Origin: Candidatus Levybacteria bacterium CG2_30_37_29
Lineage (GTDB): Bacteria > Patescibacteriota > Microgenomatia > Levybacterales > GWA1-39-11
Length of the DNA: 53,072 nt
NCBI GenBank assembly: GCA_001873215.1
Contig: MNYS01000006.1
Span: 1,767-54,838, forward strand
Reading direction: 5' to 3'
The notes under the pieces are model-generated. The model did not search any database and had not been told where the DNA came from. It saw only the letters and a list, made by a program, of their open reading frames with translations. How positions within the stretch are numbered: the stretch's first letter is position 1; each line of letters opens with the position of its first letter. Below are positions 4,672-48,669 of this stretch, one piece after another. A program made the translations under genes and the position numbers.

Positions 4672-5310
4672 TCATTTTTCCGTCTCATCCCGAAGTTTTT
4701 GGGTTTTTTCAAGGATATCAGAAAGCTCTTCTACCTCTTCATCGTCATTTTCCACGTGGTCTGAATGTAAAAGCGAGTCAACATCCTCAATTATTTCTCC
4801 AGTTTTGTCTTCTACCTCTTTTTCAAGCTTTTCGCGTCTTTTAAATTCCCTGCCAAAGAAAAAAGCTATTGGGGAAAGAAATCCGAGAGACCCAATCTTT
4901 ATAAGATTTGATAGAACGTCATCTTTTAATGCCGGTTGAATAAATACGGCGGCAAATCCAAGCAAAAATACAAAAACAGTCACCGGTTCAAATAGAAATG
5001 CTATTCCAAAAAGAAGAAAATATAGTAAGAAGAAAAGGTTTGATTGTATTCCGCCCGTCAAAAAGACAGTCAGGACAATACCAGCAGTAATGACAAAAAC
5101 CTCACGAAGGGATCCGATAAATAATTCATCTCCCTGCCTGCCTGCCGGCAGGCCTTTGTTTCTGCGGCGTTGAATAACAACAAAAATAATGGAAAAAATT
5201 ATAAGAAGGGCAAGGATTTGGGTTATGAAGTCTGAAAGAGGAGTGTTAAGCGTGATAAAAACGAAAATCGTTGCGAGAATCAGAGTGGTGGATTGTTTTA
5301 AGGTTTTCAT
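4672..5310 (-). CDS. Polytopic membrane protein with acidic C-terminal tail, function unknown; carries an in-frame PAGRQ palindrome
   Basis: Long ORF with about 5 hydrophobic segments and an acidic coiled tail (EKEVEDKTGEIIEDVD...). The sequence NKGLPAGRQGDE is encoded by the palindrome. Confidence 0.6.
   Translation of the reverse strand: MKTLKQSTTLILATIFVFITLNTPLSDFITQILALLIIFSIIFVVIQRRRNKGLPAGRQGDELFIGSLREVFVITAGIVLTVFLTGGIQSNLFFLLYFLLFGIAFLFEPVTVFVFLLGFAAVFIQPALKDDVLSNLIKIGSLGFLSPIAFFFGREFKRREKLEKEVEDKTGEIIEDVDSLLHSDHVENDDEEVEELSDILEKTQKLRDETEK
5133..5154. repeat. PAGRQ-element copy (asymmetric variant CCTGCCTGCCTGCCGGCAGGCC), in frame within the CDS
   Basis: Read directly from the sequence. 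It encodes LPAGRQ in 4672..5310. Confidence 0.85.
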
Positions 5311-5385
5311 TTAGAAAAGTTCCTTTCACAATAATCATACCATAGAATAATTCAGTTTTGCTCTGTGATAGAGTTTATTTTTTTT

Positions 5386-5673
5386 GCGTCTTTTCAAAAA
5401 GACGCCCAAAACTTCTTGAGAGTATTCTTCCTTGTTCTTTCTGCCGAGAAAGAACCAAAGACTCTTGTCGTGTCGCGCTCACGCATTACGCCTTTCCCTC
5501 ACTCACTGAAAGAGCCGGACAAGCCTTTCCTCTTTCCTGGCGCTCGCTCGGTCAAGGCTCCAAGCGTTGTGCGTGAAACGACAAATACGTTAGATTGCAA
5601 GGGGAGAGCAGATTAAGAAAACGGCGATTAAAAGAAATTGAGAATTGGAGCAATGATAATTGATTGAAAATTT
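5386..5673 (+). repeat. Hairpin-rich intergenic repeat family, copy A
   Basis: Starts with the hairpin GCGTCTTTTCAAAAAGACGC followed by CCAAAACTTCTTGAGAGT. The second hairpin is GTTCTTTCT-GCCG-AGAAAGAAC followed by CCAAAGACT. It also has the TCACTCACT block and the tail GATAATTGATTGAAAATT shared with copy C. Confidence 0.75.
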
Positions 5674-5872
5674 AAAATTTAAAATTGAAAATTCCTCGAA
5701 GAGGTGTGTGGTGGTCCGGAAGGAAAGTTTACGCTGGTTGCGTAAAAACATTCCCTCCGGAACCGATTTCTCCGATTTAATCGGGGTTTCCCCGCGTCGG
5801 CGGCGAGAGTAGACCGTGCTGTCGGTCTGGTTCGCGTTTGACGCGTGACTGTTTCGTAGGTCATTCTACAGA

Positions 5873-7396: not shown

Positions 7397-10150
7397 ATGA
7401 AGAAAGATAAAAATTACTACAATCACAGTTTAATCGAGCCTAAGTGGCAAAAGTCTTGGGAAGAAAAAAAACTTTTCTCTCCTGACTTGAAAAATGCCAA
7501 AAATCCATACTACAACCTCATGATGTTCCCATATCCTTCAGCCGAAGGGCTTCATGTCGGCAATATGTATACTTTCACGGGGGCAGACGTTTACGCTCGT
7601 TTTAACCGTATGCAGGGAAAAGATGTTTTTGAACCGATTGGCCTTGACGGATTTGGGATTCACTCCGAAAATTATGCACTCAAGGTTGGCCGCCATCCGC
7701 GCGAGCAGGCGGAAATATCAGAGAAAAATTTCTACAGACAGCTGCGCGCTATCGGTAATTCTTTTGACTGGACAAGAACGCTTGAGACTTATGATCCTAA
7801 TTATTACAAATGGACACAATGGTTATTTGTCCAGCTTTTCAAAGCAGGTCTTGCGTACAGAAAAAAAGCAGAAGTTAACTGGTGTCCTTCATGTAAAACA
7901 GTTTTATCAGATGAACAAGTTATCGTAGATAAGTGCGAGAGGTGCAGTTCGACCGTCGAAAAAAGGGAACTGGAGCAATGGTTTTTCAGAATCACAGCCT
8001 ATGCCGAAAGACTTTTGAACAATTTAGAAAAGCTTGATTGGACCGAAAAAATAAAAATAGCCCAGAAAAACTGGATTGGCAGATCACAGGGTTGTTTGAT
8101 AAACTTTCAGGTTGTTGATTTAGACTGTCAAATCAAGGTTTTTACAACACGTCCCGATACGCTTTTTGGATCAACTTTTCTTGTTTTGTCCCCAGAACAC
8201 CCAATTTGTCAGAAAATTGACCAAAAAGACGTCAAAGACTATGTCCGAAAAGCTCACAATATATCAGACAATGACAGAATTACAGAAGGAAAGGAAAAAA
8301 CAGGGGTCTTTAGCGGGCTTTATGCAATAAATCCCGTAAATAGTGAAAAGATTCCAATTTGGATTGCGGATTATGTACTTATGGGTTATGGAACCGGTGC
8401 GATTATGGCTGTCCCAGCTCACGACCAAAGAGATTATGAGTTTGCCAAAAAGTATAATTTGCCGATAAGGCAGGTAATCGCGCCAGTATCAAGTAGTAAG
8501 TATCAAGTATTAAGCAAAAAAGAGGAAATACTTAATGCTAAATACGTAATACATAATACTGATATTGTTGAGGCCTATGCCGGAGATGGGAAAATATTAA
8601 ATTCAGGTGAGTGGAGTGGATGGGAAGTTCCAAAAGATATGGATATGGTTATCGATTGGATTGAGAAGAAAGGTTTTGGAAAACGTGAAGTAACTTTCCA
8701 TCTTCGTGACTGGCTGATTTCAAGACAGAGATATTGGGGTCCGCCGATCCCGATGATTTACTGCAAGGCATGTCATGATGCTGGCCGTTCGTGGTTTACT
8801 GAAAATAAAGCTGCGCTCGGTGAAAGAGAAGTATCAAGTAGTAAGTATCAAGTATTAAGCAAAAAAGAGGAAATACTTAACACTAAATACATAATACATA
8901 ATACTGAAATGAATGGATGGTATCCTGTTTTAGATGAAAATCTTCCGGTGCTTCTTCCTGATGTAGAAGATTGGAAACCCCGTTCAGCAAGTTCGGCAAG
9001 GTCGGGCCTTGCCAATAAGACTGAAGGGCCTTTGTCCTCACATCCGGAGTTTTATGAAACAAAATGCCCTAAATGCGGCGTAACAGCCAGAAGAGAGACA
9101 GATGTTTCCGATACCTTTCTTGACAGTGCTTGGTACTTTCTTCGTTATACGTCGGTTGATACAGAAAGTGTAGCTTTTGATAGGGAAACCGTAAAAAAAT
9201 GGCTTCCGGTAAATATGTATATTGGCGGAGCAGAGCATGCGGTGCTTCACCTTTTGTATAGCCGTTTTATCACGATGGTATTAAATGATTTGAAATTTGT
9301 TGATTTTGATGAACCTTTTACAAAACTCTTTGCGCATGGGCTTATCATAAAAGATGGTGCAAAGATGAGTAAATCACGCGGAAACGTGGTTATTCCTGAC
9401 GGATATATTAAAAAATACGGCGCGGATACTCTTCGAATGTATCTTATGTTTATAGGACCTTTCAATCAGGGAGGGGATTTCTCAGATTCTGGAATTGAAG
9501 GAATGAATCGTTTCCTCAAGAAAGTCTGGCGACTTCTTTCGGAAGCTCAAATTTCAAATTTAAAATTTCAAATTTCCAATCAAATTCCAAATGATGAATT
9601 TGCAAAATTAGATACAAAAATGCATAGAACTATAAAGGATATAACTGAAGATATTCAAAACTTTAAATACAATACCTCAATCGCGAGACTAATGGAATAC
9701 TATAATGTTCTTTTTGATTTTTATACTAAATACAAAATACCTGCCTCGCCGGCAGGCAGGCTAGATACCAAATACTGCAAAACATTAGTTTTGTTACTTG
9801 CGCCGTTTGCGCCGCATATGACTGAAGAATTGTGGCAAAGATTAAAGATTAAAGATTTAGGATTAAAGAATGAAGAGAAGAATCATCAATCAGCAATCAC
9901 CAATCATAAATCAATACATGTAGAGGCGTGGCCAACGTTTGATGAAAAATATTTAGTAGAAGATACGGTTACAATTGTTATTCAGGTAAATGGAAAAAAG
10001 CGTTCAGAGTTTATAGTTAATAGTTCACAGTTAAAAGATGAAGAAAAACTTAAAAGTCAGGCACAAGAAATAATAAAAAAATATATTGAAGGAAAAACAA
10101 TTAAAAAAACTATTTATGTTCAAGGTAAAATATTGAATTTTGTGGTGTAG
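7397..10150 (+). CDS. leuS: Leucyl-tRNA synthetase with multiple in-frame repeat insertions
   Basis: Class I signatures are present: PSAEGLHVGN (HIGH-type) and KMSKS (aa 656-660). It also has the zinc-knuckle CPSCKT...CERC, the editing-domain motif TTRPDTLFG and AVPAHDQRDYEFA. It is 917 aa, longer than I would expect for a bacterial LeuRS, because of the insertions. Confidence 0.95.
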   Translation: MKKDKNYYNHSLIEPKWQKSWEEKKLFSPDLKNAKNPYYNLMMFPYPSAEGLHVGNMYTFTGADVYARFNRMQGKDVFEPIGLDGFGIHSENYALKVGRHPREQAEISEKNFYRQLRAIGNSFDWTRTLETYDPNYYKWTQWLFVQLFKAGLAYRKKAEVNWCPSCKTVLSDEQVIVDKCERCSSTVEKRELEQWFFRITAYAERLLNNLEKLDWTEKIKIAQKNWIGRSQGCLINFQVVDLDCQIKVFTTRPDTLFGSTFLVLSPEHPICQKIDQKDVKDYVRKAHNISDNDRITEGKEKTGVFSGLYAINPVNSEKIPIWIADYVLMGYGTGAIMAVPAHDQRDYEFAKKYNLPIRQVIAPVSSSKYQVLSKKEEILNAKYVIHNTDIVEAYAGDGKILNSGEWSGWEVPKDMDMVIDWIEKKGFGKREVTFHLRDWLISRQRYWGPPIPMIYCKACHDAGRSWFTENKAALGEREVSSSKYQVLSKKEEILNTKYIIHNTEMNGWYPVLDENLPVLLPDVEDWKPRSASSARSGLANKTEGPLSSHPEFYETKCPKCGVTARRETDVSDTFLDSAWYFLRYTSVDTESVAFDRETVKKWLPVNMYIGGAEHAVLHLLYSRFITMVLNDLKFVDFDEPFTKLFAHGLIIKDGAKMSKSRGNVVIPDGYIKKYGADTLRMYLMFIGPFNQGGDFSDSGIEGMNRFLKKVWRLLSEAQISNLKFQISNQIPNDEFAKLDTKMHRTIKDITEDIQNFKYNTSIARLMEYYNVLFDFYTKYKIPASPAGRLDTKYCKTLVLLLAPFAPHMTEELWQRLKIKDLGLKNEEKNHQSAITNHKSIHVEAWPTFDEKYLVEDTVTIVIQVNGKKRSEFIVNSSQLKDEEKLKSQAQEIIKKYIEGKTIKKTIYVQGKILNFVV
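8486..8563 (+). repeat. 78-nt in-frame repeat module, copy 1 (VSSSKYQVLSKKEEILNAKYVIHNTD)
   Basis: Nearly identical (about 4 mismatches) to 8831..8908. It is built from the words AAGTATCAAGTA and AATAC..TAATAC seen elsewhere. Confidence 0.9.
8831..8908 (+). repeat. 78-nt in-frame repeat module, copy 2 (VSSSKYQVLSKKEEILNTKYIIHNTE)
   Basis: Direct comparison with copy 1. Confidence 0.9.
9545..9592 (+). repeat. AT-rich AAATTTAAAATT-type word repeat inserted in frame in leuS (AQISNLKFQISNQIPN)
   Basis: The sequence CAAATTTCAAATTTAAAATTTCAAATTTCCAATCAAATTCC matches the intergenic word repeats. Confidence 0.7.
9740..9760. repeat. PAGRQ-element variant CCTGCCTCGCCGGCAGGCAGG in frame in leuS (PASPAGRL)
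   Basis: Read directly from the sequence. Confidence 0.85.
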
Positions 10151-10151
10151 A

Positions 10152-10385
10152 TCTTTGTACTTTCGTTCCGGCGAAAGTACCAAAGACTCTCGTCGGGTCT
10201 TGTTCATACCATTCAAAAGCTCACTCATTCAGGGAAGTACCGGACTCTCCACCAGTCGGCGGATCGCCTTTCAACTTCTTGTTCCTTCGTTCGTTCACTT
10301 CTTCATGGGATTCACTTCGAATCGACGACTATGATGGCGCGTGAAACGGCGAATTTTGGAAAATGATCCTTGAAAATTTAAAATT
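10152..10385 (+). repeat. Hairpin-rich intergenic repeat family, copy B (lacks the 5' hairpin)
   Basis: Contains GTACTTTCG-TTCCGG-CGAAAGTAC followed by CCAAAGACTCTCGTCGGGTCTTGTTC, the block GCTCACTCATT, and the end TTCATGGGATTCACTTCGAATCGACGAC. It begins 2 nt after the leuS stop. Confidence 0.75.
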
Positions 10386-10397
10386 TAAAACTTAAAA

Positions 10398-11048
10398 TTG
10401 TTGTGTCGTATGGATGAAGGTACCGGCGAATTGTTTTCAAAGCTTCAAGTTTTTGCAAAAAATAATTTAATCATCTTGGTTCTGGGGGTTTTGGGACTTT
10501 CTCTACTAATTGTCGGTTTAATACAATTACTGGGTCAAAAGCCTCCCGAAGTAAATTTCAGTGCCGCACAAGATTTGAAAACAACACAATCAACAGCTTC
10601 TACGAGTCCAAAAATAGCAGTAGACATAGAAGGAGCCGTTCAAAAACCCGGAGTTTTCCGTCTTCCGCCTGATGCGCGCGTCCAGGACGCGCTGATTGCG
10701 GCAGGGGGAATAAGCGCGCAAGCAGATCGGAATTTTATTGAGAAAAGTCTTAATCTTGCTCAAAAGCTAACAGATGGGGCAAAGATTTATATTCCGCGTC
10801 AAGGAGAAGTTGCAACGAGTACTAAGTTAACCACAGGTTTAAGCGTAGACACAAGTCAGTCTGTTCGCGGACAAATAAATATTAATTCAGCAACGCTTGT
10901 CCAGCTTGATACGCTTCCGGGAGTAGGGCAAGTGATTGGTCAAAAAATAATTGATAACAGGCCGTATTCTGATATTTCCCAGCTTGTGTCAAAAAAAATA
11001 GTATCGCAAAAAACTTTTGACAAACTTAAAGATAGCATTGGGATATAG
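10398..11048 (+). CDS. comEA: ComEA-type DNA receptor (TM anchor, SLBB-like domain, helix-hairpin-helix)
   Basis: Motifs IAVDIEGAVQKPGVFRLP and INSATLVQLDTLPGVGQVIGQKIIDNRPY. The probable true start is the ATG at 10410. Confidence 0.85.
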   Translation: MLCRMDEGTGELFSKLQVFAKNNLIILVLGVLGLSLLIVGLIQLLGQKPPEVNFSAAQDLKTTQSTASTSPKIAVDIEGAVQKPGVFRLPPDARVQDALIAAGGISAQADRNFIEKSLNLAQKLTDGAKIYIPRQGEVATSTKLTTGLSVDTSQSVRGQININSATLVQLDTLPGVGQVIGQKIIDNRPYSDISQLVSKKIVSQKTFDKLKDSIGI

Positions 11049-14279: not shown

Positions 14280-14363
14280 AATTTTAAATCAAATATAAAT
14301 TTTAAAATTAAAAACTCTAAAATTAATTTAAAACTTAAAACTTAAAATTGAAAATTTAAAATT
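14280..14363 (+). repeat. About 85-nt AT-rich leader repeat (copy X) ending 8 nt before a start codon
   Basis: AATTTTAAATCAAATATAAATTTTAAAATTAAAAACTCTAA...TTGAAAATTTAAAATT is roughly 85-90% identical by hand alignment to 52478..52554. Confidence 0.7.
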
Positions 14364-14371
14364 TTGAACCT

Positions 14372-14710
14372 ATGTTTGATAGCACACGATTTTTAACAAT
14401 AATTGTAGAAGGAATTTCTTTTGTAGCAGCATTTGCGGCGCTTGCTGCCGCAGTCATTATGTATCAAGTAACGAAAAAATTCGGTAGCGGAATTTTAGCG
14501 TCGGGCTTTAAAAGCATAGCGTTTGGTGTTCTTTTTTTAGCCTTGGGAATAATAATTGACGCGCTAAATTCATCGCTTCAAATTCAATACAACAATATAT
14601 ATTCAGTTGCGGTTTTAGTTATAAAAGGAGCGTGTTTTGTAATAGGAACATATATTATTGTTATAGGAACAAAAAATACCGCAGATCGCCTCGAGAATCT
14701 TACGAAATAA
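14372..14710 (+). CDS. Small 3-4-TM membrane protein
   Basis: 112-aa hydrophobic ORF directly upstream of the kinase gene. Confidence 0.55.
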   Translation: MFDSTRFLTIIVEGISFVAAFAALAAAVIMYQVTKKFGSGILASGFKSIAFGVLFLALGIIIDALNSSLQIQYNNIYSVAVLVIKGACFVIGTYIIVIGTKNTADRLENLTK

Positions 14711-14736
14711 TGATAACTAGGTTATATAGGTTATAG

Positions 14737-16488
14737 GTGATAGCAACGATTATGCAAACGATTGCCCTTATATTTTCAATTTTGGTATCCGGCTTTTTTG
14801 GAATACTTTCTATTTTTTATGCTTCGCGTGACGAAAAAACAAAGAAAGAAAGAGAATCGCAAAAAAAAGAGCTTTCACGAAGGCTTTATGAATCTACAAT
14901 CTTAAAAGATATTGCCCAAATTAGTGCATACTCTTTAAACATTGAACTTGTGGCCGGAGCCATTGTTGCATCAATACAAAACCTTTTCAAGCTCACCACC
15001 GCGTCATATGCAATAGCGACAGAAATCCAAATTACTATAAACACAAGAGCATCGCAGGGTATAGGTCCTCAATACCTTGAAAATATTTCAAAAATTATTC
15101 GAGATTCTTTATGCGGAATAGATGAGACAAAAAAAACAATCCCAATAAAAGTTTTTCCAGCGCAATATAATATAGAAAATACCATATCGTTACCTTTTGA
15201 TGCAGTACCTCTGTCTTATTTTAATATTCCTCTTATTGTCAACAATAGGCTAAGAGGTCTTATCACTATTTCCTCACACATCCCAAATATTTATCAGGAA
15301 GAAGATATGAGCATGATGTATAAAATTGTAAATACCGCAGCCCGCTCAATCGGTCGGCTTGAAGAAGTAATTGAAACGGAAAAAGGAAAGACCGATTCTC
15401 TCATCGCAAGCCTTTCTTCAGGCGCAATGCTTTTTATGCTTGAAAAAAACGGACTCTCAATTTCTACAATAAATGAAGCGGCGAGAATTTTTCTTAACCT
15501 TCCTGCAGGTTATTTGGAAACTTATATGGTACTTGACAGGTTTGGAAAAACTGAAAGCATACTTTTACACTTGCAAAAGGTTTTAACAGAAAAAAAGACT
15601 ATTGTTTTAAACGATATTATTCTATCTGAAAAGCATTTTAAGCTTTACATAAGTCCTGTTTTTTATTACGACACAAAGAACGTAATAGGTGTTTCAATTA
15701 CAATGCAGGATATTACTATGGAAAAAGATCTTGAGGCTCTTCGTGAGAATTTCACAAATATGGTAGTGCACCAGCTTCGCACTCCGCTTACAGCTATAAA
15801 AGGTGCGTCAAATCTGCTTTTGAATAAAAATCTAAACGATAAAGACTATGAAAAAATGCTTGATGTTATAAAAAATTCTTCGGAGGAAGGATTAAACGAT
15901 ATAGGAAGTCTTCTTGATGCGGCAAAAATAGACGCGGGTAAATTCGTACTCTACAAAGAGATGTTTGATATAAATAGTCTTGTTCATCAACGCGCACAAG
16001 AATTTTTGGTTCTTGCCGGTCAAAAAGGGATAACACTAAATACAAATACGCAAGTTGGAATTCCGGAATTTTCTTTTGATCCGCTTCGAATAGGTCAGGT
16101 TCTAAGCAACCTTTTTTCAAACAGCCTAAAAGCAACCCCTGTTGGCGGAACGATTACCATAAAAACCATTCTAAATGGTGGGAATTTAGAGGTTTTGGTA
16201 TCAGACACGGGGAATGGTATTCCTAAGGATAAGATAGGGCTTCTTTTCTCAAAATTTGGGCAAATTGGCAATACTGCAAACAAGGACAGTACAGGGCTCG
16301 GACTTTTTATTTCAAAAGGAATTGTTGTTGAGCACGGAGGGAAGATTTGGATAGAGTCTCCTGTTCTGTCTTCTCAAGGCGAAGGAGAAGGAAAGGGGAC
16401 GACCGTACATTTCACTTTGCCGATTGTAAAAGAAAAGAAAGAAGAGGAAAGAGAAGCCTTAGAAATTCCCCAGACGTTCGTGAATTGA
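14737..16488 (+). CDS. Sensor histidine kinase (TM, GAF/PAS-like region, HisKA, HATPase_c)
   Basis: H-box VHQLRTPLTAIKG, N-box LSNLFSNSLKAT, G1 DTGNGIP and G2 GLGLFISKGIV. The track start is a GTG at 14737; an alternative ATG lies at 14752. It ends with TGA. Confidence 0.9.
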   Translation: MIATIMQTIALIFSILVSGFFGILSIFYASRDEKTKKERESQKKELSRRLYESTILKDIAQISAYSLNIELVAGAIVASIQNLFKLTTASYAIATEIQITINTRASQGIGPQYLENISKIIRDSLCGIDETKKTIPIKVFPAQYNIENTISLPFDAVPLSYFNIPLIVNNRLRGLITISSHIPNIYQEEDMSMMYKIVNTAARSIGRLEEVIETEKGKTDSLIASLSSGAMLFMLEKNGLSISTINEAARIFLNLPAGYLETYMVLDRFGKTESILLHLQKVLTEKKTIVLNDIILSEKHFKLYISPVFYYDTKNVIGVSITMQDITMEKDLEALRENFTNMVVHQLRTPLTAIKGASNLLLNKNLNDKDYEKMLDVIKNSSEEGLNDIGSLLDAAKIDAGKFVLYKEMFDINSLVHQRAQEFLVLAGQKGITLNTNTQVGIPEFSFDPLRIGQVLSNLFSNSLKATPVGGTITIKTILNGGNLEVLVSDTGNGIPKDKIGLLFSKFGQIGNTANKDSTGLGLFISKGIVVEHGGKIWIESPVLSSQGEGEGKGTTVHFTLPIVKEKKEEEREALEIPQTFVN

Positions 16489-20112: not shown

Positions 20113-20144
20113 TAACGATCCCGTCTAACGATCCCGTATCGTTA
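20113..20144. repeat. REP-like hairpin TAACGATCCCGTATCGTTA preceded by a truncated half copy
   Basis: The sequence is TAACGATCCCGTC followed by TAACGATCCCGTATCGTTA. The same hairpin flanks the RAYT gene at 48704. Confidence 0.85.
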
Positions 20145-20159
20145 GAGTCCTTTTTCTTT

Positions 20160-20403
20160 GCGTCTTTTCAAAAAGACGCCCAAAACTTCTTGCGAGTATT
20201 ATTCTTTGTACTTTCGTTCCGGCGAAAGTACCAAAGCCTATCGCCGAGTTTTGTTCCGTGCTTTCAAAACCTCGTTACTCACTGAATTTTCGAGTCCCCT
20301 TCGGCGAAAATTCCGGGCGCTTGCTCCTGGGTTTTTCATGCACTTCACTGCAAATCGGCGATTAAAAAATGAGTATTAGAATATTGATAATTGATTGAAA
20401 ATT
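20160..20403 (+). repeat. Hairpin-rich intergenic repeat family, copy C (most complete)
   Basis: Contains GCGTCTTTTCAAAAAGACGCCCAAAACTTCTTGCGAGT, GTACTTTCG-TTCCGG-CGAAAGTAC, TTACTCACT, TTCATGCACTTCACTGCAAATCGGCGATT and the tail GATAATTGATTGAAAATT. Confidence 0.8.
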
Positions 20404-20530
20404 GCTTGCCCTGAGGGAACCCGAAGGGAAAATTGTAAATTGAAAATTTCTGTCGGAATATTGGTAGGATTTGTGATTGAAGAGGTAAGAAATGAAACAT
20501 GAGGCACTAAGATATGTTTTGATACCCTAG

Positions 20531-25866: not shown

Positions 25867-26682
25867 TTACTTTCCAAAGAAGAAGAGGCCAAAAAGAAAA
25901 ATTGCAACTGCAATCCTGTAAATTCCGAATGGAATAAAGCTGTATTTTTTGACGTACGAGAGCAGCCATTTGATAGCAAAAATTGCAACAACAAATGATG
26001 TTATAATTCCTATACCAAGCGCAATCCATTCGTTTGTACTGAAATAAAAGCTCGTTTTGACAAGGTCAAGTCCTGTTGCCGCAAGCATTGTAGGGATTGC
26101 AAGTAAAAATGAGAATTCTACGGCTGTTTTTCGATCCATTCCCATTAACATTCCGCCGAAAATTGTTGCGGCAGCTCGTGAGACTCCCGGAACAACAGAA
26201 ATTGACTGGATAATGCCTATAATTACTGCGTTTTTATATGAAACAGTAGCAATAGATTGATGATTTATGACCTGCCTGCCGGCAGGCACGGTTGATGATT
26301 TCTGATTTTTACGTTTGAGGTAGAGTTCGAGCGCAATAAGAGCTATTCCTCCAAGCGCAAGTGACCACAAAACCACGCTTGAATTTCCAAGTAAATACTG
26401 TTTGATGAGTTTATATAGTAAAAATCCTATAACTCCGGTTGGGATAAAAGCGGCCAAAACCTTTTTTAGCGATTCGGTTTTTGTCATAATATCTTTCCAA
26501 TACAACGCGATTACGGCCAGAATTGCGCCTGATTGTATGGCAATTTCAAATGTTTTGACAAAATCTGTTTGGCTAATACTTAAAAGTTTGCTTGCTAAAA
26601 TAAGATGGCCCGTTGAGGAAATAGGGAGGAATTCGGTGATTCCTTCAACAATTCCTAAAATTATTGCTTGAAAGATATCCAT
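25867..26682 (-). CDS. uppP: Undecaprenyl-diphosphate phosphatase with an in-frame repeat insertion in the central loop
   Basis: Motifs GIVEGITEFLPISSTGHL and PGVSRAAATI. The insert is KSSTVPAGRQVINHQSIA. Confidence 0.9.
   Translation of the reverse strand: MDIFQAIILGIVEGITEFLPISSTGHLILASKLLSISQTDFVKTFEIAIQSGAILAVIALYWKDIMTKTESLKKVLAAFIPTGVIGFLLYKLIKQYLLGNSSVVLWSLALGGIALIALELYLKRKNQKSSTVPAGRQVINHQSIATVSYKNAVIIGIIQSISVVPGVSRAAATIFGGMLMGMDRKTAVEFSFLLAIPTMLAATGLDLVKTSFYFSTNEWIALGIGIITSFVVAIFAIKWLLSYVKKYSFIPFGIYRIAVAIFLFGLFFFGK
26271..26290. repeat. PAGRQ-element copy in frame in uppP, abutting a TGATGATTTATGA word repeat
   Basis: The plus strand reads CCTGCCTGCCGGCAGGCACG, which encodes TVPAGRQVI on the minus strand. 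Confidence 0.85.
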
Positions 26683-26710
26683 AAGCGTTTTTTGTTTAGC
26701 GTTTAGTTAA

Positions 26711-27088
26711 TTAGCGTTTAGGGTTTAGTTGACCAATCTTTATAATCATAACATGAAGCATGCGTGAAACTTCATTAACCAAGCTTTCAATATCATTGTA
26801 CGAGTTTATATTACCAAATTTTAAGTCTCTTGCTATGGTTAGTTGAGTTTCCAGTTCCAGCAATGATCCGTACGCTATTGAATAGAACTGTGAATATTCC
26901 CTAGAAGATTTTCTTGCATAACCCTCTGCTATATTTGATGGAATTGAAACTGCGGCTCGGCGCATTTGAGAGCTTAAACCATAAATTTCCGATTGAGGAA
27001 AGTTGTTTGTTAGTTTGTAAATTTCTTTTACAAGAGAAATTGATTTCTGCCACACAATTAGTTCTTTGTAAGATTTTATTGATGACAT
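26711..27088 (-). CDS. Four-helix-bundle protein (23S rRNA IVS protein / Avd-like family)
   Basis: Hallmark motifs YKELIVWQKSISLVKEIYKLTNNFPQSEIYGLSSQMRRAAVSIPSNIAEGYAR and GSLLELETQL. Confidence 0.85.
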   Translation of the reverse strand: MSSIKSYKELIVWQKSISLVKEIYKLTNNFPQSEIYGLSSQMRRAAVSIPSNIAEGYARKSSREYSQFYSIAYGSLLELETQLTIARDLKFGNINSYNDIESLVNEVSRMLHVMIIKIGQLNPKR

Positions 27089-27120
27089 AACTAAACGCTA
27101 ATTCCTAAATAACTAAACCC

Positions 27121-28503
27121 TTATCGCATCACAAGTGATGCGATTGTTGCTGCTCCTGCGATGGTCATAATCGCGACGGTTACATACCCCAAGATATTTG
27201 TATGTACACGGTTTTTCCATTCACCCATAATTTTTTTGTTGCTTGAGATGGTCACGATAAGAATAAGAATTACCGGGGCAATAAGTCCGTTGGTCACAGC
27301 AGAGTAGATAAGCATTTTTATAGGGTCAATTCCTATAAAATTTACCCCAAGCCCTATGAGTAGTGAAAAAATTATAACTCCGTAGAAAGAATAGGCGTCG
27401 TTTAGCTTTCTGTTCAGACCAAACCTCCATTGAAGAGCCTCTGAAATTGCGTATGCGGATGAGCCTGCAAGAATTGGTATTGCAAGCATTCCCGTTCCTA
27501 TAATTCCAAGTGTGAAAAGAAGATATGCGCCGTCTCCTGCAAGCGGACGCAAGGCTTCTGCTGCCTGCGAAGCAGTTTGGATATTGGTTATTCCTTTTGG
27601 AAAAAGAGTTGCAGCGCACGCCGCAATTATAAAATACATGACCAAATTTGAGACAAACATTCCTGACCAAACATCAACTCTCATGCGTTTTACTGCCCGC
27701 GGAGTCGTGCCGCGGCGCATAGCAAGTGTTATTTTTCCTTGCAGTATTTCTTCTTCAATTTCTTGAGACGTTTGCCAGAAAAAAAGATAAGGAGAAATTG
27801 TTGTGCCTAAAATCGCGCAGATTAAGAACGCTTGGTTTCCTGAAAATGACAGAGAAGGCAAGACGGTATTTTTTAAAAGTTGTGAAAAGTCCAAATTGAT
27901 ACTTAATGCAGAGAAAATATATGAAACAAGAATTAAAGCCAAAAACTTCAAATATTTTGCGTATCGTTCATAGCTTGTGAAAATTTGCAGCCCAACACAT
28001 ATCGCTGTGAAACTAAAAATAAGGTAAATAAAATCTATTTTTGGAACAAGAAGGCGGGTTGCATCTGCCATGGCACCAAGGTCAGCTCCTATATTCAAAG
28101 TATTTGCGACAAGCAAAAGTATGGTACATGTATAAATTACCCAAGGTGGAAAAAACTTTCTGATATTGGCTGCCAATCCGCGCCCCGTAACAAGTCCGAT
28201 TCGCGCGCACATCTCTTGAACTACAGCCATAAGAGGAAAAGTGAAAGTTGCAAGCCAGAGAAGTTGGAAACCGTATTGAGCGCCTGTTTGGGAATAAGTT
28301 GCAATTCCTGATGGATCATCGTCCGCCGCGCCTGTTGTTAGGCCCGGTCCCAAAGTCTGCCAGTACCTTTTTGCCCGTCTTACATGACTTTGTGTTACAG
28401 CATTATGTATTTGCTGAGAAGTATTTACCGTTTTATCCAAAATAACGGCTGGGGTTTCAACAACCCTTTCAACAGACCTTCTACTAAAAATGCTTTTAAT
28501 CAC
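27121..28503 (-). CDS. NRAMP-family divalent metal cation transporter
   Basis: Motif GPGLTTGAADDDPSGIATYSQTGAQYGFQLLW with about 11 TM segments. It starts with GTG, with AAGAGG upstream. Confidence 0.85.
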   Translation of the reverse strand: MIKSIFSRRSVERVVETPAVILDKTVNTSQQIHNAVTQSHVRRAKRYWQTLGPGLTTGAADDDPSGIATYSQTGAQYGFQLLWLATFTFPLMAVVQEMCARIGLVTGRGLAANIRKFFPPWVIYTCTILLLVANTLNIGADLGAMADATRLLVPKIDFIYLIFSFTAICVGLQIFTSYERYAKYLKFLALILVSYIFSALSINLDFSQLLKNTVLPSLSFSGNQAFLICAILGTTISPYLFFWQTSQEIEEEILQGKITLAMRRGTTPRAVKRMRVDVWSGMFVSNLVMYFIIAACAATLFPKGITNIQTASQAAEALRPLAGDGAYLLFTLGIIGTGMLAIPILAGSSAYAISEALQWRFGLNRKLNDAYSFYGVIIFSLLIGLGVNFIGIDPIKMLIYSAVTNGLIAPVILILIVTISSNKKIMGEWKNRVHTNILGYVTVAIMTIAGAATIASLVMR

Positions 28504-29087: not shown

Positions 29088-29159
29088 GCCTGAGTAACTC
29101 AGTGGTAGAGTAGCTCTTTCGTAAAGAGCAAGTCGTGGGTTCGAATCCCACCTCAGGCT
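29088..29159 (+). tRNA. tRNA-Thr (anticodon CGT)
   Basis: Cloverleaf folded by hand. Acceptor GCCTGAG/CTCAGGC, D-arm ACTC-AGTGGTA-GAGT, anticodon arm GCTCT-TTCGTAA-AGAGC, T-arm GTGGG-TTCGAAT-CCCAC. No encoded CCA. Confidence 0.9.
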
Positions 29160-32983: not shown

Positions 32984-33055
32984 GCCGAAGTAACTCAGCG
33001 GTAGAGTAGCTGTTTTGTAAACAGCAAGTCGCGGGTTCGAATCCCGCCTTCGGCT
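32984..33055 (+). tRNA. tRNA-Thr (anticodon TGT)
   Basis: Acceptor GCCGAAG/CTTCGGC, D-arm ACTC-AGCGGTA-GAGT, anticodon arm GCTGT-TTTGTAA-ACAGC, T-arm GCGGG-TTCGAAT-CCCGC. Confidence 0.9.
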
Positions 33056-38224: not shown

Positions 38225-38244
38225 AACGTATCAAGATTTATGAT

Positions 38245-38631
38245 TTATGATTTCTGATTAATGAATGTCTTACTTTTTCTTATAAAGCCCTGTAATAGTC
38301 GATCAACAATGTCTGTTTGTTCCGTTAAAATTTTAAGATCCATTTCTGATAGACAATCAACATCTTTTGCGATTAATATAAAATTTTTAAGCTCTGAAAG
38401 CGACCCTTTTGACATATAGTAGAATTGAACTTTTTCTCTGTAGCCTTGTCTTCCAAAGCCTTCCGTAATGTTCCCTGTTATCGAAGCTGCAGCTCGTCTC
38501 ATTTGGTCTATTAGAGAGTATGTTTCTTCTCGAGGGAAACTCTTGGTGATTTTATAAGTCATAATTACAAGCTTATGTCCTTCCCTCCATACACTCAAAT
38601 CCGTAAATGATTCTATTTTCCCGTTTTTCAT
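38245..38631 (-). CDS. Four-helix-bundle protein (23S rRNA IVS protein / Avd-like family)
   Basis: Motifs FTDLSVWREGHKLVIMTYKITKSFPREETYSLIDQMRRAAASITGNITEGFGR and GSLSELKNF. Confidence 0.85.
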   Translation of the reverse strand: MKNGKIESFTDLSVWREGHKLVIMTYKITKSFPREETYSLIDQMRRAAASITGNITEGFGRQGYREKVQFYYMSKGSLSELKNFILIAKDVDCLSEMDLKILTEQTDIVDRLLQGFIRKSKTFINQKS

Positions 38632-38669
38632 ATTCTTTAATCATTAATCATTAATCTTTAATCAAGTAT

Positions 38670-48054: not shown

Positions 48055-48110
48055 GTTTAATTTTAAATTTTCAATTTTAAATTTTAAATCAAATCAAAAT
48101 ACAAATCAAA

Positions 48111-48470
48111 ATGACAAGCAATAATAAAACATATGATCTTGAGGAAAGAACTGCAAAGTTTGGAGAGGCAATAATTGACGTTTGTAAAAAAGTATCAAAA
48201 GATACGGTTTCAGCTCCAATTATTACCCAGTTGGTAAAAGCAGGGACGAGCATCGGAGCAAATTATTATGAAGCAAATGGTGCTTCAAGTAAAAAAGATT
48301 TTCTGAACAAGATATTTATTGCAAAAAAAGAAGCAAGAGAAACAAAATATTGGTTACGAATGGTTGTAAAATTGCAGACAGATTTGAGGGATTCGTGTTC
48401 GGTGCTCTGGAAGGAAGCACAAGAACTGACGCTTATTTTTTCAAAAATAGCCATTACGACAAAAAAATGA
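48111..48470 (+). CDS. Four-helix-bundle protein (23S rRNA IVS protein / Avd-like family), divergent
   Basis: Motif YDLEERTAKFGEAIIDVCKKV...IITQLVKAGTSIGANYYEANGASSKKDFLNKIFIAKKEARETKYWLRM. Confidence 0.75.
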   Translation: MTSNNKTYDLEERTAKFGEAIIDVCKKVSKDTVSAPIITQLVKAGTSIGANYYEANGASSKKDFLNKIFIAKKEARETKYWLRMVVKLQTDLRDSCSVLWKEAQELTLIFSKIAITTKK

Positions 48471-48669
48471 AATTTAATATTTATTATTCATTTAAAATTG
48501 TAAATTTAAAATTTAAAATTTATAAGCGGATGTCTATGCACAATTTAATTAAAAAAGTTGTGTTGAGGTGGAAGGCTTTTTTTAAGCGCTTCCCGATAGC
48601 ACAACTTTATACATACAAAATTTAGAAGGACGAGGTTAATTTTTTCTTCTCTTGACACTTGACGACACT

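Follow-up and report, generated by a model that had tools for sequence, protein, structure and literature searches.

Repeat-derived in-frame segments in a Levybacteria leucyl-tRNA synthetase gene and their likeness to the arms of PF05635 cassettes

The leucyl-tRNA synthetase gene analysed here lies in a stretch of 53,072 nucleotides (the window) from Candidatus Levybacteria bacterium CG2_30_37_29, a member of the candidate phyla radiation (CPR; Patescibacteria): contig MNYS01000006.1 of assembly GCA_001873215.1, positions 1,767 to 54,838, forward strand. The open reading frame (ORF) 7397..10150 (+) encodes the 917 residues of an intact bacterial-type leucyl-tRNA synthetase (LeuRS) and carries, at six places, extra in-frame segments, most of them built from repeat DNA. 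A preliminary description of the window had presented leuS as a mosaic with at least five repeat-derived inserts; the five that it listed were all found, together with a sixth, a GC hairpin at 8992-9015, which it had overlooked. Judged from its sequence, leuS is apparently a working gene that carries these segments.

The leuS gene and its six inserts

The six segments, all on the forward strand, are the following.
8485..8565 (+), module copy 1: four AGTATNA words, two spacer heptamers and five AATACNN words; encodes VSSSKYQVLSKKEEILNAKYVIHNTD
8830..8910 (+), module copy 2: corresponds to T. thermophilus C442 to V444, with Cys pair 456/459 before it and 557/560 after it
8992..9015 (+), sixth insert, the GC hairpin GGCAAGG TCGGG CCTTGCC: encodes part of SASSARSGLA
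9545..9592 (+), insert 3, a (C/A)AAATTT heptamer array: encodes AQISNLKFQISNQIPN
9740..9763 (+), insert 4, a GC palindrome of the CCTGCCTGCCGGCAGGCAGG family: 7-residue insertion IPASPAG
9837..9913 (+), insert 5: four AAGATTA words, a spacer and five AATCANN words; encodes KIKDLGLKNEEKNHQSAITNHKS

The host enzyme matches the T. thermophilus LeuRS (PDB 1h3n) at E 6e-226, and Pfam recognises tRNA-synt_1, tRNA-synt_1_2 and Anticodon_1, with PF13603 placed at residues 224-422 and PF08264 at 740-880. Its nearest proteins come from Candidatus Levybacteria, the best match outside its own organism being 63% identical. The class I motifs, already reported to be intact, are HVGN at residues 53-56 (the HIGH position) and KMSKS at 656-660; in an alignment of 120 relatives the H and G of HVGN are invariant and the V and N nearly so. 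Also present are the Cys pairs 163/166, 180/183, 456/459 and 557/560 and, for editing, the motifs TTRPDT (at 250) and AHD (at 341), and all columns invariant in the 120 relatives are retained. The CP1 editing domain follows the ZN domain, and the anticodon-binding domain, the C-terminal domain and the overall fold are likewise those of a LeuRS.

The enzyme has lost the leucine-specific domain, which spans residues 578-635 in T. thermophilus, and shows IKDG at that place (9349-9360, residues 651-654). The LeuRS of Mycoplasma mobile lacks the editing domain as well. The window enzyme resembles it as a minimal LeuRS with a tetrapeptide for the leucine-specific domain, but retains the editing domain and has gained repeat-derived loops. 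In the M. mobile enzyme (PDB 3ziu) the tetrapeptide is GKDG (PMC3643597).

The two module copies form an 81-nt direct repeat with 4 differences (95% identity), in agreement with the near-identical duplication described before. All AT-rich leuS inserts are built from 7-nt words, a structure that the preliminary description had overlooked. The module reads AGTATCA AGTAGTA AGTATCA AGTATTA in its left arm, AGCAAAA AAGAGGA in the spacer and AATACTT AATGCTA AATACGT AATACAT AATACTG in its right arm. Insert 3, noted earlier as an AT-word insert, has 6.9 units of a period-7 array at 9547-9592, and insert 5 has arms at 9837-9869 (AAAGATT x 4.7) and 9881-9913 (AATCATC x 4.7). Insert 4 interrupts a run of AATAC-type words encoding YTKYK..LDTKYCK. 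The cores of the left and right arms are complementary (GTAT/ATAC in the module, GATT/AATC in insert 5), and the predicted fold of the arms, as RNA or single-stranded DNA, is an interrupted hairpin with 4-bp stems and 3-nt bulges. The folding z score is -4.15 for module copy 1 and -2.4 for the GC hairpin at 8992-9015; for module copy 2 and for insert 5 it is about -1.8.

Period-7 arrays were detected with Tandem Repeats Finder and a purpose-made detector. The window contains 21 of them, as compared with 0-3 arrays for any other period from 2 to 12, and related Levybacteria loci (L005-L007) show the same enrichment. Although the window is 85% coding, the arrays are mostly intergenic. The four strict arrays in leuS exceed the rate in the remaining coding sequence (P ~5e-5). 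Of the six frames, just one is open in the module and in insert 5, and this is the frame in use.

The GC palindrome of insert 4 (9741-9763) belongs, as previously noted, to a repeated family (CCTGCCTGCCGGCAGGCAGG), with six copies in the window. Besides leuS, it lies within two more ORFs, UppP/BacA and the unannotated ORF 4672..5310. The GC hairpin at 8992-9015 has no second copy in the window. In UppP/BacA the palindrome is part of an in-frame composite:
26253..26310 (-), KNQKSSTVPAGRQVINHQSIATV: GATT words, GC palindrome, GATT words; host ORF 25867..26682 (-)

The insert sites, all of which vary in length, were judged against the T. thermophilus enzyme and the alignment of 120 relatives, with the following lengths (window enzyme versus median in relatives).
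Site 1, residues 361-392: 34 aa versus 17; end of the editing domain, about T. thermophilus 363-375
Site 2, residues 459-509: 51 aa versus 16; between Cys pairs 456/459 and 557/560
GC-hairpin site, residues 526-546: 21 aa versus 11
Site 3, residues 713-741: 29 aa versus 19.5
Site 4, residues 776-795: 20 aa versus 12.5
Site 5, residues 813-841: 29 aa versus 17; between T. thermophilus P796 and D797

Combined, the six sites account for about 90 extra residues. At site 2, besides the module itself, about 20 extra residues lie upstream of it. Inserts 3 and 4, which had been called insertions, are insertions relative to close relatives but give no net insertion relative to the T. thermophilus enzyme; their regions are variable in all LeuRS. 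At the position of insert 4, relatives such as P0003, P0004 and P0029 read FYTKYK-------ILDTKYCK where the window enzyme has FYTKYKIPASPAGRLDTKYCK.

An AlphaFold2 model built from a 24-sequence alignment had a predicted local distance difference test score (pLDDT) of 60 and was unusable; the model used was built from the 120-sequence alignment (mean pLDDT 84.5, predicted TM score 0.83). It agrees with solved LeuRS structures at TM scores of 0.78-0.86 (2bte 0.78/0.81; 4aq7 0.80/0.85). The only long stretches with pLDDT below 50 are residues 368-388 (module copy 1), 475-502 (copy 2), 531-541 (GC hairpin) and the KMSKS loop, whereas inserts 3 to 5 score 65-76. Toleration of the inserts would fit their placement in low-confidence loops of the model.

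The segments might in principle be removed, as an intron, as an RNase III-cleaved intervening sequence or as an intein, leaving an enzyme without them. They do form hairpins, and RNase III cuts relatives of such elements out of rRNA (PMC4990558). That excision, however, leaves RNA fragments unjoined and would destroy an mRNA (PMC4990558). Removal at the RNA level would impose no constraint on the frame, yet a single open frame is used. The segments measure only 21-81 nt (7-27 residues), with no intein-sized block among them, and leuS has no Rfam match of any kind, group I and group II introns included, at the gathering score; at E<=1 Rfam returned only a chance miRNA-like hairpin. Since there is no Rfam intron and only open frames are used, we regard splicing, and removal in general, as very unlikely.

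Many LeuRS relatives from Levybacteria (P0005, P0009, P0034, P0048, P0057 and others; about 970-1211 aa) also match other domains, either NUDIX (PF00293) or alpha/beta-hydrolase (PF00561, PF06821).

Copy number and change between strains

The organism was found in over 20 groundwater or aquifer metagenomes, in which four allelic LeuRS variants occur on about 30 contigs, each 917 residues long and each carrying every insert. A 51-nt unitig common to both module copies has a depth of 301, compared with 141-162 in the flanks (run X1), which indicates exactly two module copies in this genome, both in leuS. A window search with 3 mismatches likewise returned only these two, and shuffled windows gave no match at all. 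In this genome, the module thus forms no genome-wide family, as had been proposed for all inserts; for inserts 3, 4 and 5, membership of multi-copy families is supported. Extra depth from contigs with unrelated flanks is confined to 9548-9581 (up to 100 x the genome's own), 9728-9761 and 9837-9870, which places these three inserts in multi-copy families. Their words have many copies in the window and in the community, the contigs that supply the extra depth being of unassigned ownership.

An assembly artefact might be suspected because de Bruijn contigs break at the module repeats. The same 917-residue ORF, however, was recovered from independent samples and by different assemblers, and the depth of the common unitig is exactly twice that of its flanks. 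A pseudogene, which the preliminary description had named as a possible outcome, would not be expected to keep an open frame and every invariant residue, as leuS does. Either explanation is in our judgement extremely improbable.

No indel or joint variants of the leuS inserts were seen in four runs. Candidate alleles without the module were rejected, their joints belonging to the LeuRS of other species (12-17 mismatches); none reached >=93% likeness.

The arrays have changed between strains. The window and the strain contig L001 differ at 5 positions over 18.5 kb, and four of these fall within 10 nt of the insert-3 array (chance of such clustering ~3e-9). This array reads CAAATGT CAAATGA CAAATTT in four strain contigs and CAAATTT CAAATTT AAAATTT in the window, so that all four changes shift the sequence toward the repeat consensus. 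The cluster looks like short templated conversion. In the intergenic array 14291-14364, strains L002 and L004 are without exactly one unit (TTAAAAC, at 14334), a loss that is unit slippage. The stretch 14710-14748 is heavily rewritten between strains.

These changes bear on the possibility that the inserts originated in situ, as low-complexity sequence grown in variable loops by 7-nt slippage and short conversions in the manner of the intergenic arrays. The unit indel and the clustered change in insert 3 are what such growth would produce, and insert 3 and the YTKYK..LDTKYCK run have homologues in relatives. Heptanucleotide repeats are moreover reported to be the commonest long simple-sequence repeats in prokaryotes, with polymerase slippage as the proposed cause (PMC4679880). 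The module, however, is an 81-nt duplicate with sharp ends whose two copies have a non-repetitive spacer in common, and further points against growth in place come from other genes and genomes, as described below.

Counterparts in relatives and other genomes

The left-arm pattern of the module was scanned in 185,579 species genomes. At least 118 genome loci carry an AGTA array, whereas about 9 would be estimated if the four bases were used equally, and more in AT-rich DNA. Among the matches listed, the loci belong mostly to Bacteroidota and Patescibacteria, and 103 of 124 are intergenic, while 19 fall inside long ORFs, where they encode (L/S)SSKY(K/Q)VL or QV(A/V)SIKY. The flanks of the matches stay in 7-nt register, and in many of the copies read through an inverted arm follows 10-60 nt downstream. 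By Pfam, the host proteins include GT2, Mur ligase, Cob adenosyltransferase, ArgRS, TyrRS, AP endonuclease, GT1, RseP, GATase_3 and a methyltransferase; IleRS and GluRS were identified by eye as further hosts of the left arm.

The complete module, with 71 of 78 aligned nt identical and the non-repetitive spacer included, is also present in the RseP gene of a different Patescibacteria genome (L079). Its occurrence in an unrelated gene and genome argues against growth in place. So does the LeuRS of the relative P0029 (L006 5718-8303), in which a different 75-nt palindrome, GTCATCCTGAG...CTCAGAATGAC (VILSEAKDLPASQQGGDSSAMLQND), is likewise duplicated in frame; at its insert-3 site this enzyme has an AGTA-type array (SSKYQVSS). 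With insert 5, which matches both arms of one particular cassette (see below), these observations make an origin in situ unlikely. In-frame elements across genes and genomes indicate that the phenomenon is general in this group. A database search with the doubled module peptide (52-aa query) gave no protein match.

In the Cob adenosyltransferase of L031, the ArgRS of L056 and a large surface protein of L062, AGTA and ATAC arms lie about 10-25 residues apart, and the sequence between them, at least in L031, is native protein. This suggests that the two arms can sit apart. Five viral contigs from IMG/VR (L149-L153) hold an intergenic AGTA-type array and are uninformative; the IMG sample numbers of L150 and L151 are close to that of the host contig L004.

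Among LeuRS genes, a similar module is found at site 2 in 7 of the 120 relatives (P0030, P0018 and P0024, for example), whereas the site-1 module has no counterpart in any of the 120 and is unique to this genome. Since only site 2 has counterparts, the site-1 copy is probably the younger one, the direction of copying being read from this distribution. Other relatives carry at site 2 repeat peptides of the AAATTT, GATT or GC type. With four repeat types in all at one spot, site 2 is a hot spot.

In the LeuRS of P0030 (locus L005), whose overall identity is about 60%, the site-2 module agrees at 68 of 81 nt and keeps the heptamer layout. No other 27-codon stretch of the gene is as well conserved in nucleotides between the window and L005 as the module (84% versus a mean of 64.5%, standard deviation 8.4). 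Codons of identical residues match in 16 of 19 cases within the module and in 221 of 476 elsewhere (p 0.0016), whereas 7 of the 27 residues differ. Nucleotide conservation despite residue changes speaks for constraint on, or homogenisation of, the DNA itself rather than for selection on the protein.

These data are relevant to exaptation, by which at least the site-2 module would be a functional, lineage-specific LeuRS peptide (a binding surface, for example) and the site-1 copy its duplicate. The recurrence of a similar module at exactly one place and its outstanding conservation between the window and L005 are in favour of such a role. The conservation, however, includes synonymous sites, the segment has a pLDDT below 50 in the model, most relatives do without it while others hold unrelated repeats at the same site, and the same peptide appears in many unrelated enzymes. 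We consider exaptation of the inserts possible but quite unlikely.

PF05635 cassettes and comparison with known systems

Three small genes of the PF05635 family (23S rRNA intervening sequence protein, a four-helix bundle) lie in the window, each enclosed by inverted heptamer arrays.
38245..38631 (-), PF05635 gene (E 8e-32) in cassette 38230..38666: GATT-type arrays
26711..27088 (-), PF05635 gene in cassette 26694..27124: GTTTAG-type arrays
48111..48470 (+), PF05635 gene in cassette 48055..48526: AAAATTT-type arrays, the word family of insert 3

The words of insert 5 had been noticed before beside the four-helix-bundle gene at 38245, without the meaning of this resemblance being recognised. Insert 5 corresponds to the upstream arm of that gene (38632-38663, 29/32) followed by its downstream arm (38235-38281, 35/47), with the ORF missing. 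By this alignment, cassette 38230-38666 appears to be the full-length counterpart of insert 5.

For an inverted-flank ranking of all 50 window ORFs, the upstream 76 nt were locally aligned to the reverse complement of the downstream 88 nt. In this blind ranking the top three ORFs, with scores of 48, 36 and 34 (next 25; median 14), were the three PF05635 genes of the window. At 19 non-duplicate metagenome loci with a PF05635 gene the median arm score was 33, compared with 14 for 33 control ORFs from the same loci. Arm words differ between cassettes but match within one: in 21 cassettes an arm scored 34 with its own partner and 17 with other partners (permutation p <= 5e-5). Inverted repeats thus enclose a PF05635 ORF in the three window cassettes and in most of the 21, but not in the leuS inserts, which contain no ORF. 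The arms of several cassettes are of the AGTAT type and align with the leuS module (L147 26/30 and 28/35; L143 28/32).

The idea that every array is part of a cassette was rejected, as a PF05635 gene is nearby at only 2 of the 118 AGTA-array loci listed.

We propose, with a probability of roughly 0.6, that the leuS segments are translated and tolerated hairpin elements, similar to Rickettsia palindromic elements (RPE), at six length-variable sites. A working LeuRS would have acquired short palindromic repeats at these sites, and the elements would be transcribed and translated with leuS rather than removed. The AT-rich ones are hairpins in which two inverted arrays, each of about four to five seven-base words, serve as arms; what would be their full-length relatives bracket a small PF05635 gene, and the leuS copies, which would derive from such cassettes, consist of the arms only. 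Spread would be by copy-and-paste, with selection leaving only those copies that fall in an open frame and a permissive loop, and arrays in place would continue to change by one-unit slippage and short templated conversion.

Several observations weigh against this proposal. Both module copies of this genome, its only two, lie in leuS, and site 1 would be explained by an intragenic duplication instead of transposition. The hairpins of module copy 2 and insert 5 are weak (z ~-1.8), and no target-site duplication, such as MITEs have at their ends, was found at the flanks of either module copy. The only ORF between matching arms is PF05635, no wider search for a transposase having been made; to our knowledge this family has no role in DNA movement and is not a known transposase. 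With only two of the 118 listed AGTA-array loci near a PF05635 gene, the arrays may be independent of it. Heptamer arrays are of low complexity, so that chance similarity between arms arises more easily than in ordinary sequence. The seven site-2 carriers are scattered in a poorly resolved, star-like neighbour-joining tree, from which one insertion and several are undecidable; they could all go back to a single old insertion that selection has maintained, that is, exaptation. That the inserts are present in the mRNA and the enzyme is deduced from the nucleotide sequence.

Short translated palindromes of this kind were reportedly described as RPE by Ogata in 2000. Repetitive extragenic palindromic (REP) elements or transposable elements of the miniature inverted-repeat type (MITEs) have also been found inside genes (PMC3733652), as with the Coxiella MITEs (PMC5896051). 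Like these, the leuS elements are short, hairpin-forming palindromic repeats that stand in frame in housekeeping genes as well as between genes. They would similarly be translated into tolerated extra surface peptides, here in aminoacyl-tRNA synthetases among others. In-frame copies occur in unrelated genes, namely LeuRS (twice) and UppP in the window and more than 10 Pfam families in other CPR genomes. In contrast to RPE, the host belongs to the CPR, 7-nt words in arrays take the place of unique sequence in the arms, the genome contains the module just twice, and arms also bracket PF05635 genes. The likeness to RPE claimed here is one of mode of working rather than of family membership. The CCTGCCTGCCGGCAGGCAGG palindrome carries neither the GTAG nor the CGTC tag of REP elements, which are GC-rich palindromes of 20-40 nt; their associated transposase (RAYT) was looked for only among the scanned ORFs.

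Cassettes with a PF05635 ORF resemble another known system. In Coxiella, Leptospira and Xanthomonas, 23S rRNA intervening sequences with an S23p ORF are closed by a stem of terminal inverted repeats and cut out by RNase III; they are considered selfish elements gained by horizontal transfer (PMC4990558). The window cassettes share with them an inverted-repeat stem around a PF05635 four-helix-bundle ORF. Unlike them, the three cassettes are intergenic and their stems are heptamer arrays, while the leuS copies are without an ORF and lie within a gene for a protein, whose mRNA would not survive excision by RNase III. Instead of helix 25 or 45 of 23S rRNA, the sites are intergenic or in leuS, and Rfam found no rRNA in the window.

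Heptanucleotide tandem repeats include the cyanobacterial STRR sequences and the long simple-sequence repeats of Mrazek. TAACTGA repeats are known from Beggiatoaceae, Cyanobacteria and Bacteroidetes (PMC4679880). The arrays described here are similar in having tandem 7-nt units that are enriched over other periods, mostly intergenic and close to start codons, and in their patchy distribution across Bacteroidota, cyanobacteria and other phyla. They differ in their words (AGTATCA, AAGATTA, AAAATTT, GTTTAGC), in forming hairpins from inverted pairs, in standing in frame inside essential genes and in their link to PF05635 genes.

The leuS inserts as such are a variant of a known phenomenon, selfish palindromes inside genes; their link to PF05635 cassettes, if it holds, is the new part. 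Literature text searches returned no paper with these repeat strings and none in which PF05635 is connected with heptamer repeats. Tentatively, and with more doubt than confidence, we suggest that heptamer-armed PF05635 cassettes could constitute a widespread undescribed selfish class in Patescibacteria and Bacteroidota. They would be free-living relatives of the 23S rRNA intervening sequences, with a pentameric protein that recognises its own 7-nt arrays, and arms-only copies would spread between genes and, in frame, into the loops of essential enzymes.

Translated selfish palindromes inside essential genes are best known from Rickettsia, and leuS would offer a comparable case in the CPR. The elements would also be a concrete source for part of the extra length of the often oddly long CPR proteins (about 90 residues here). 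The match of insert arms to PF05635 flanks is relevant to what the "23S rRNA intervening sequence protein" family does and to the question of what makes tandem repeats of 7 nt so frequent in certain bacterial phyla. In annotation, peptides such as SSKYQVLS, NLKFKISN and PAGRQ in CPR proteins would mark repeat DNA rather than domains.

Other repeats are present in the window. Directly after the leuS stop codon lies an intergenic repeat of 250-330 nt (10152-10405), with copies at 5340-5700 and 20115-20455. A hairpin within it (CTTTGTACTTTCG..CGAAAGTACCAAAG) is conserved, and an AAAATTT array forms its end; it has no Rfam match, and its small ORFs have no Pfam matches. A small intergenic hairpin family (TAACGATCCCGTATCGTTA) occurs at 20125, 25378, 48669, 48885 and 49390. 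Two tRNA genes, 29088-29159 and 32984-33055, are 86% identical, and a GC palindrome with a TTTAGGT array lies just upstream of the former.

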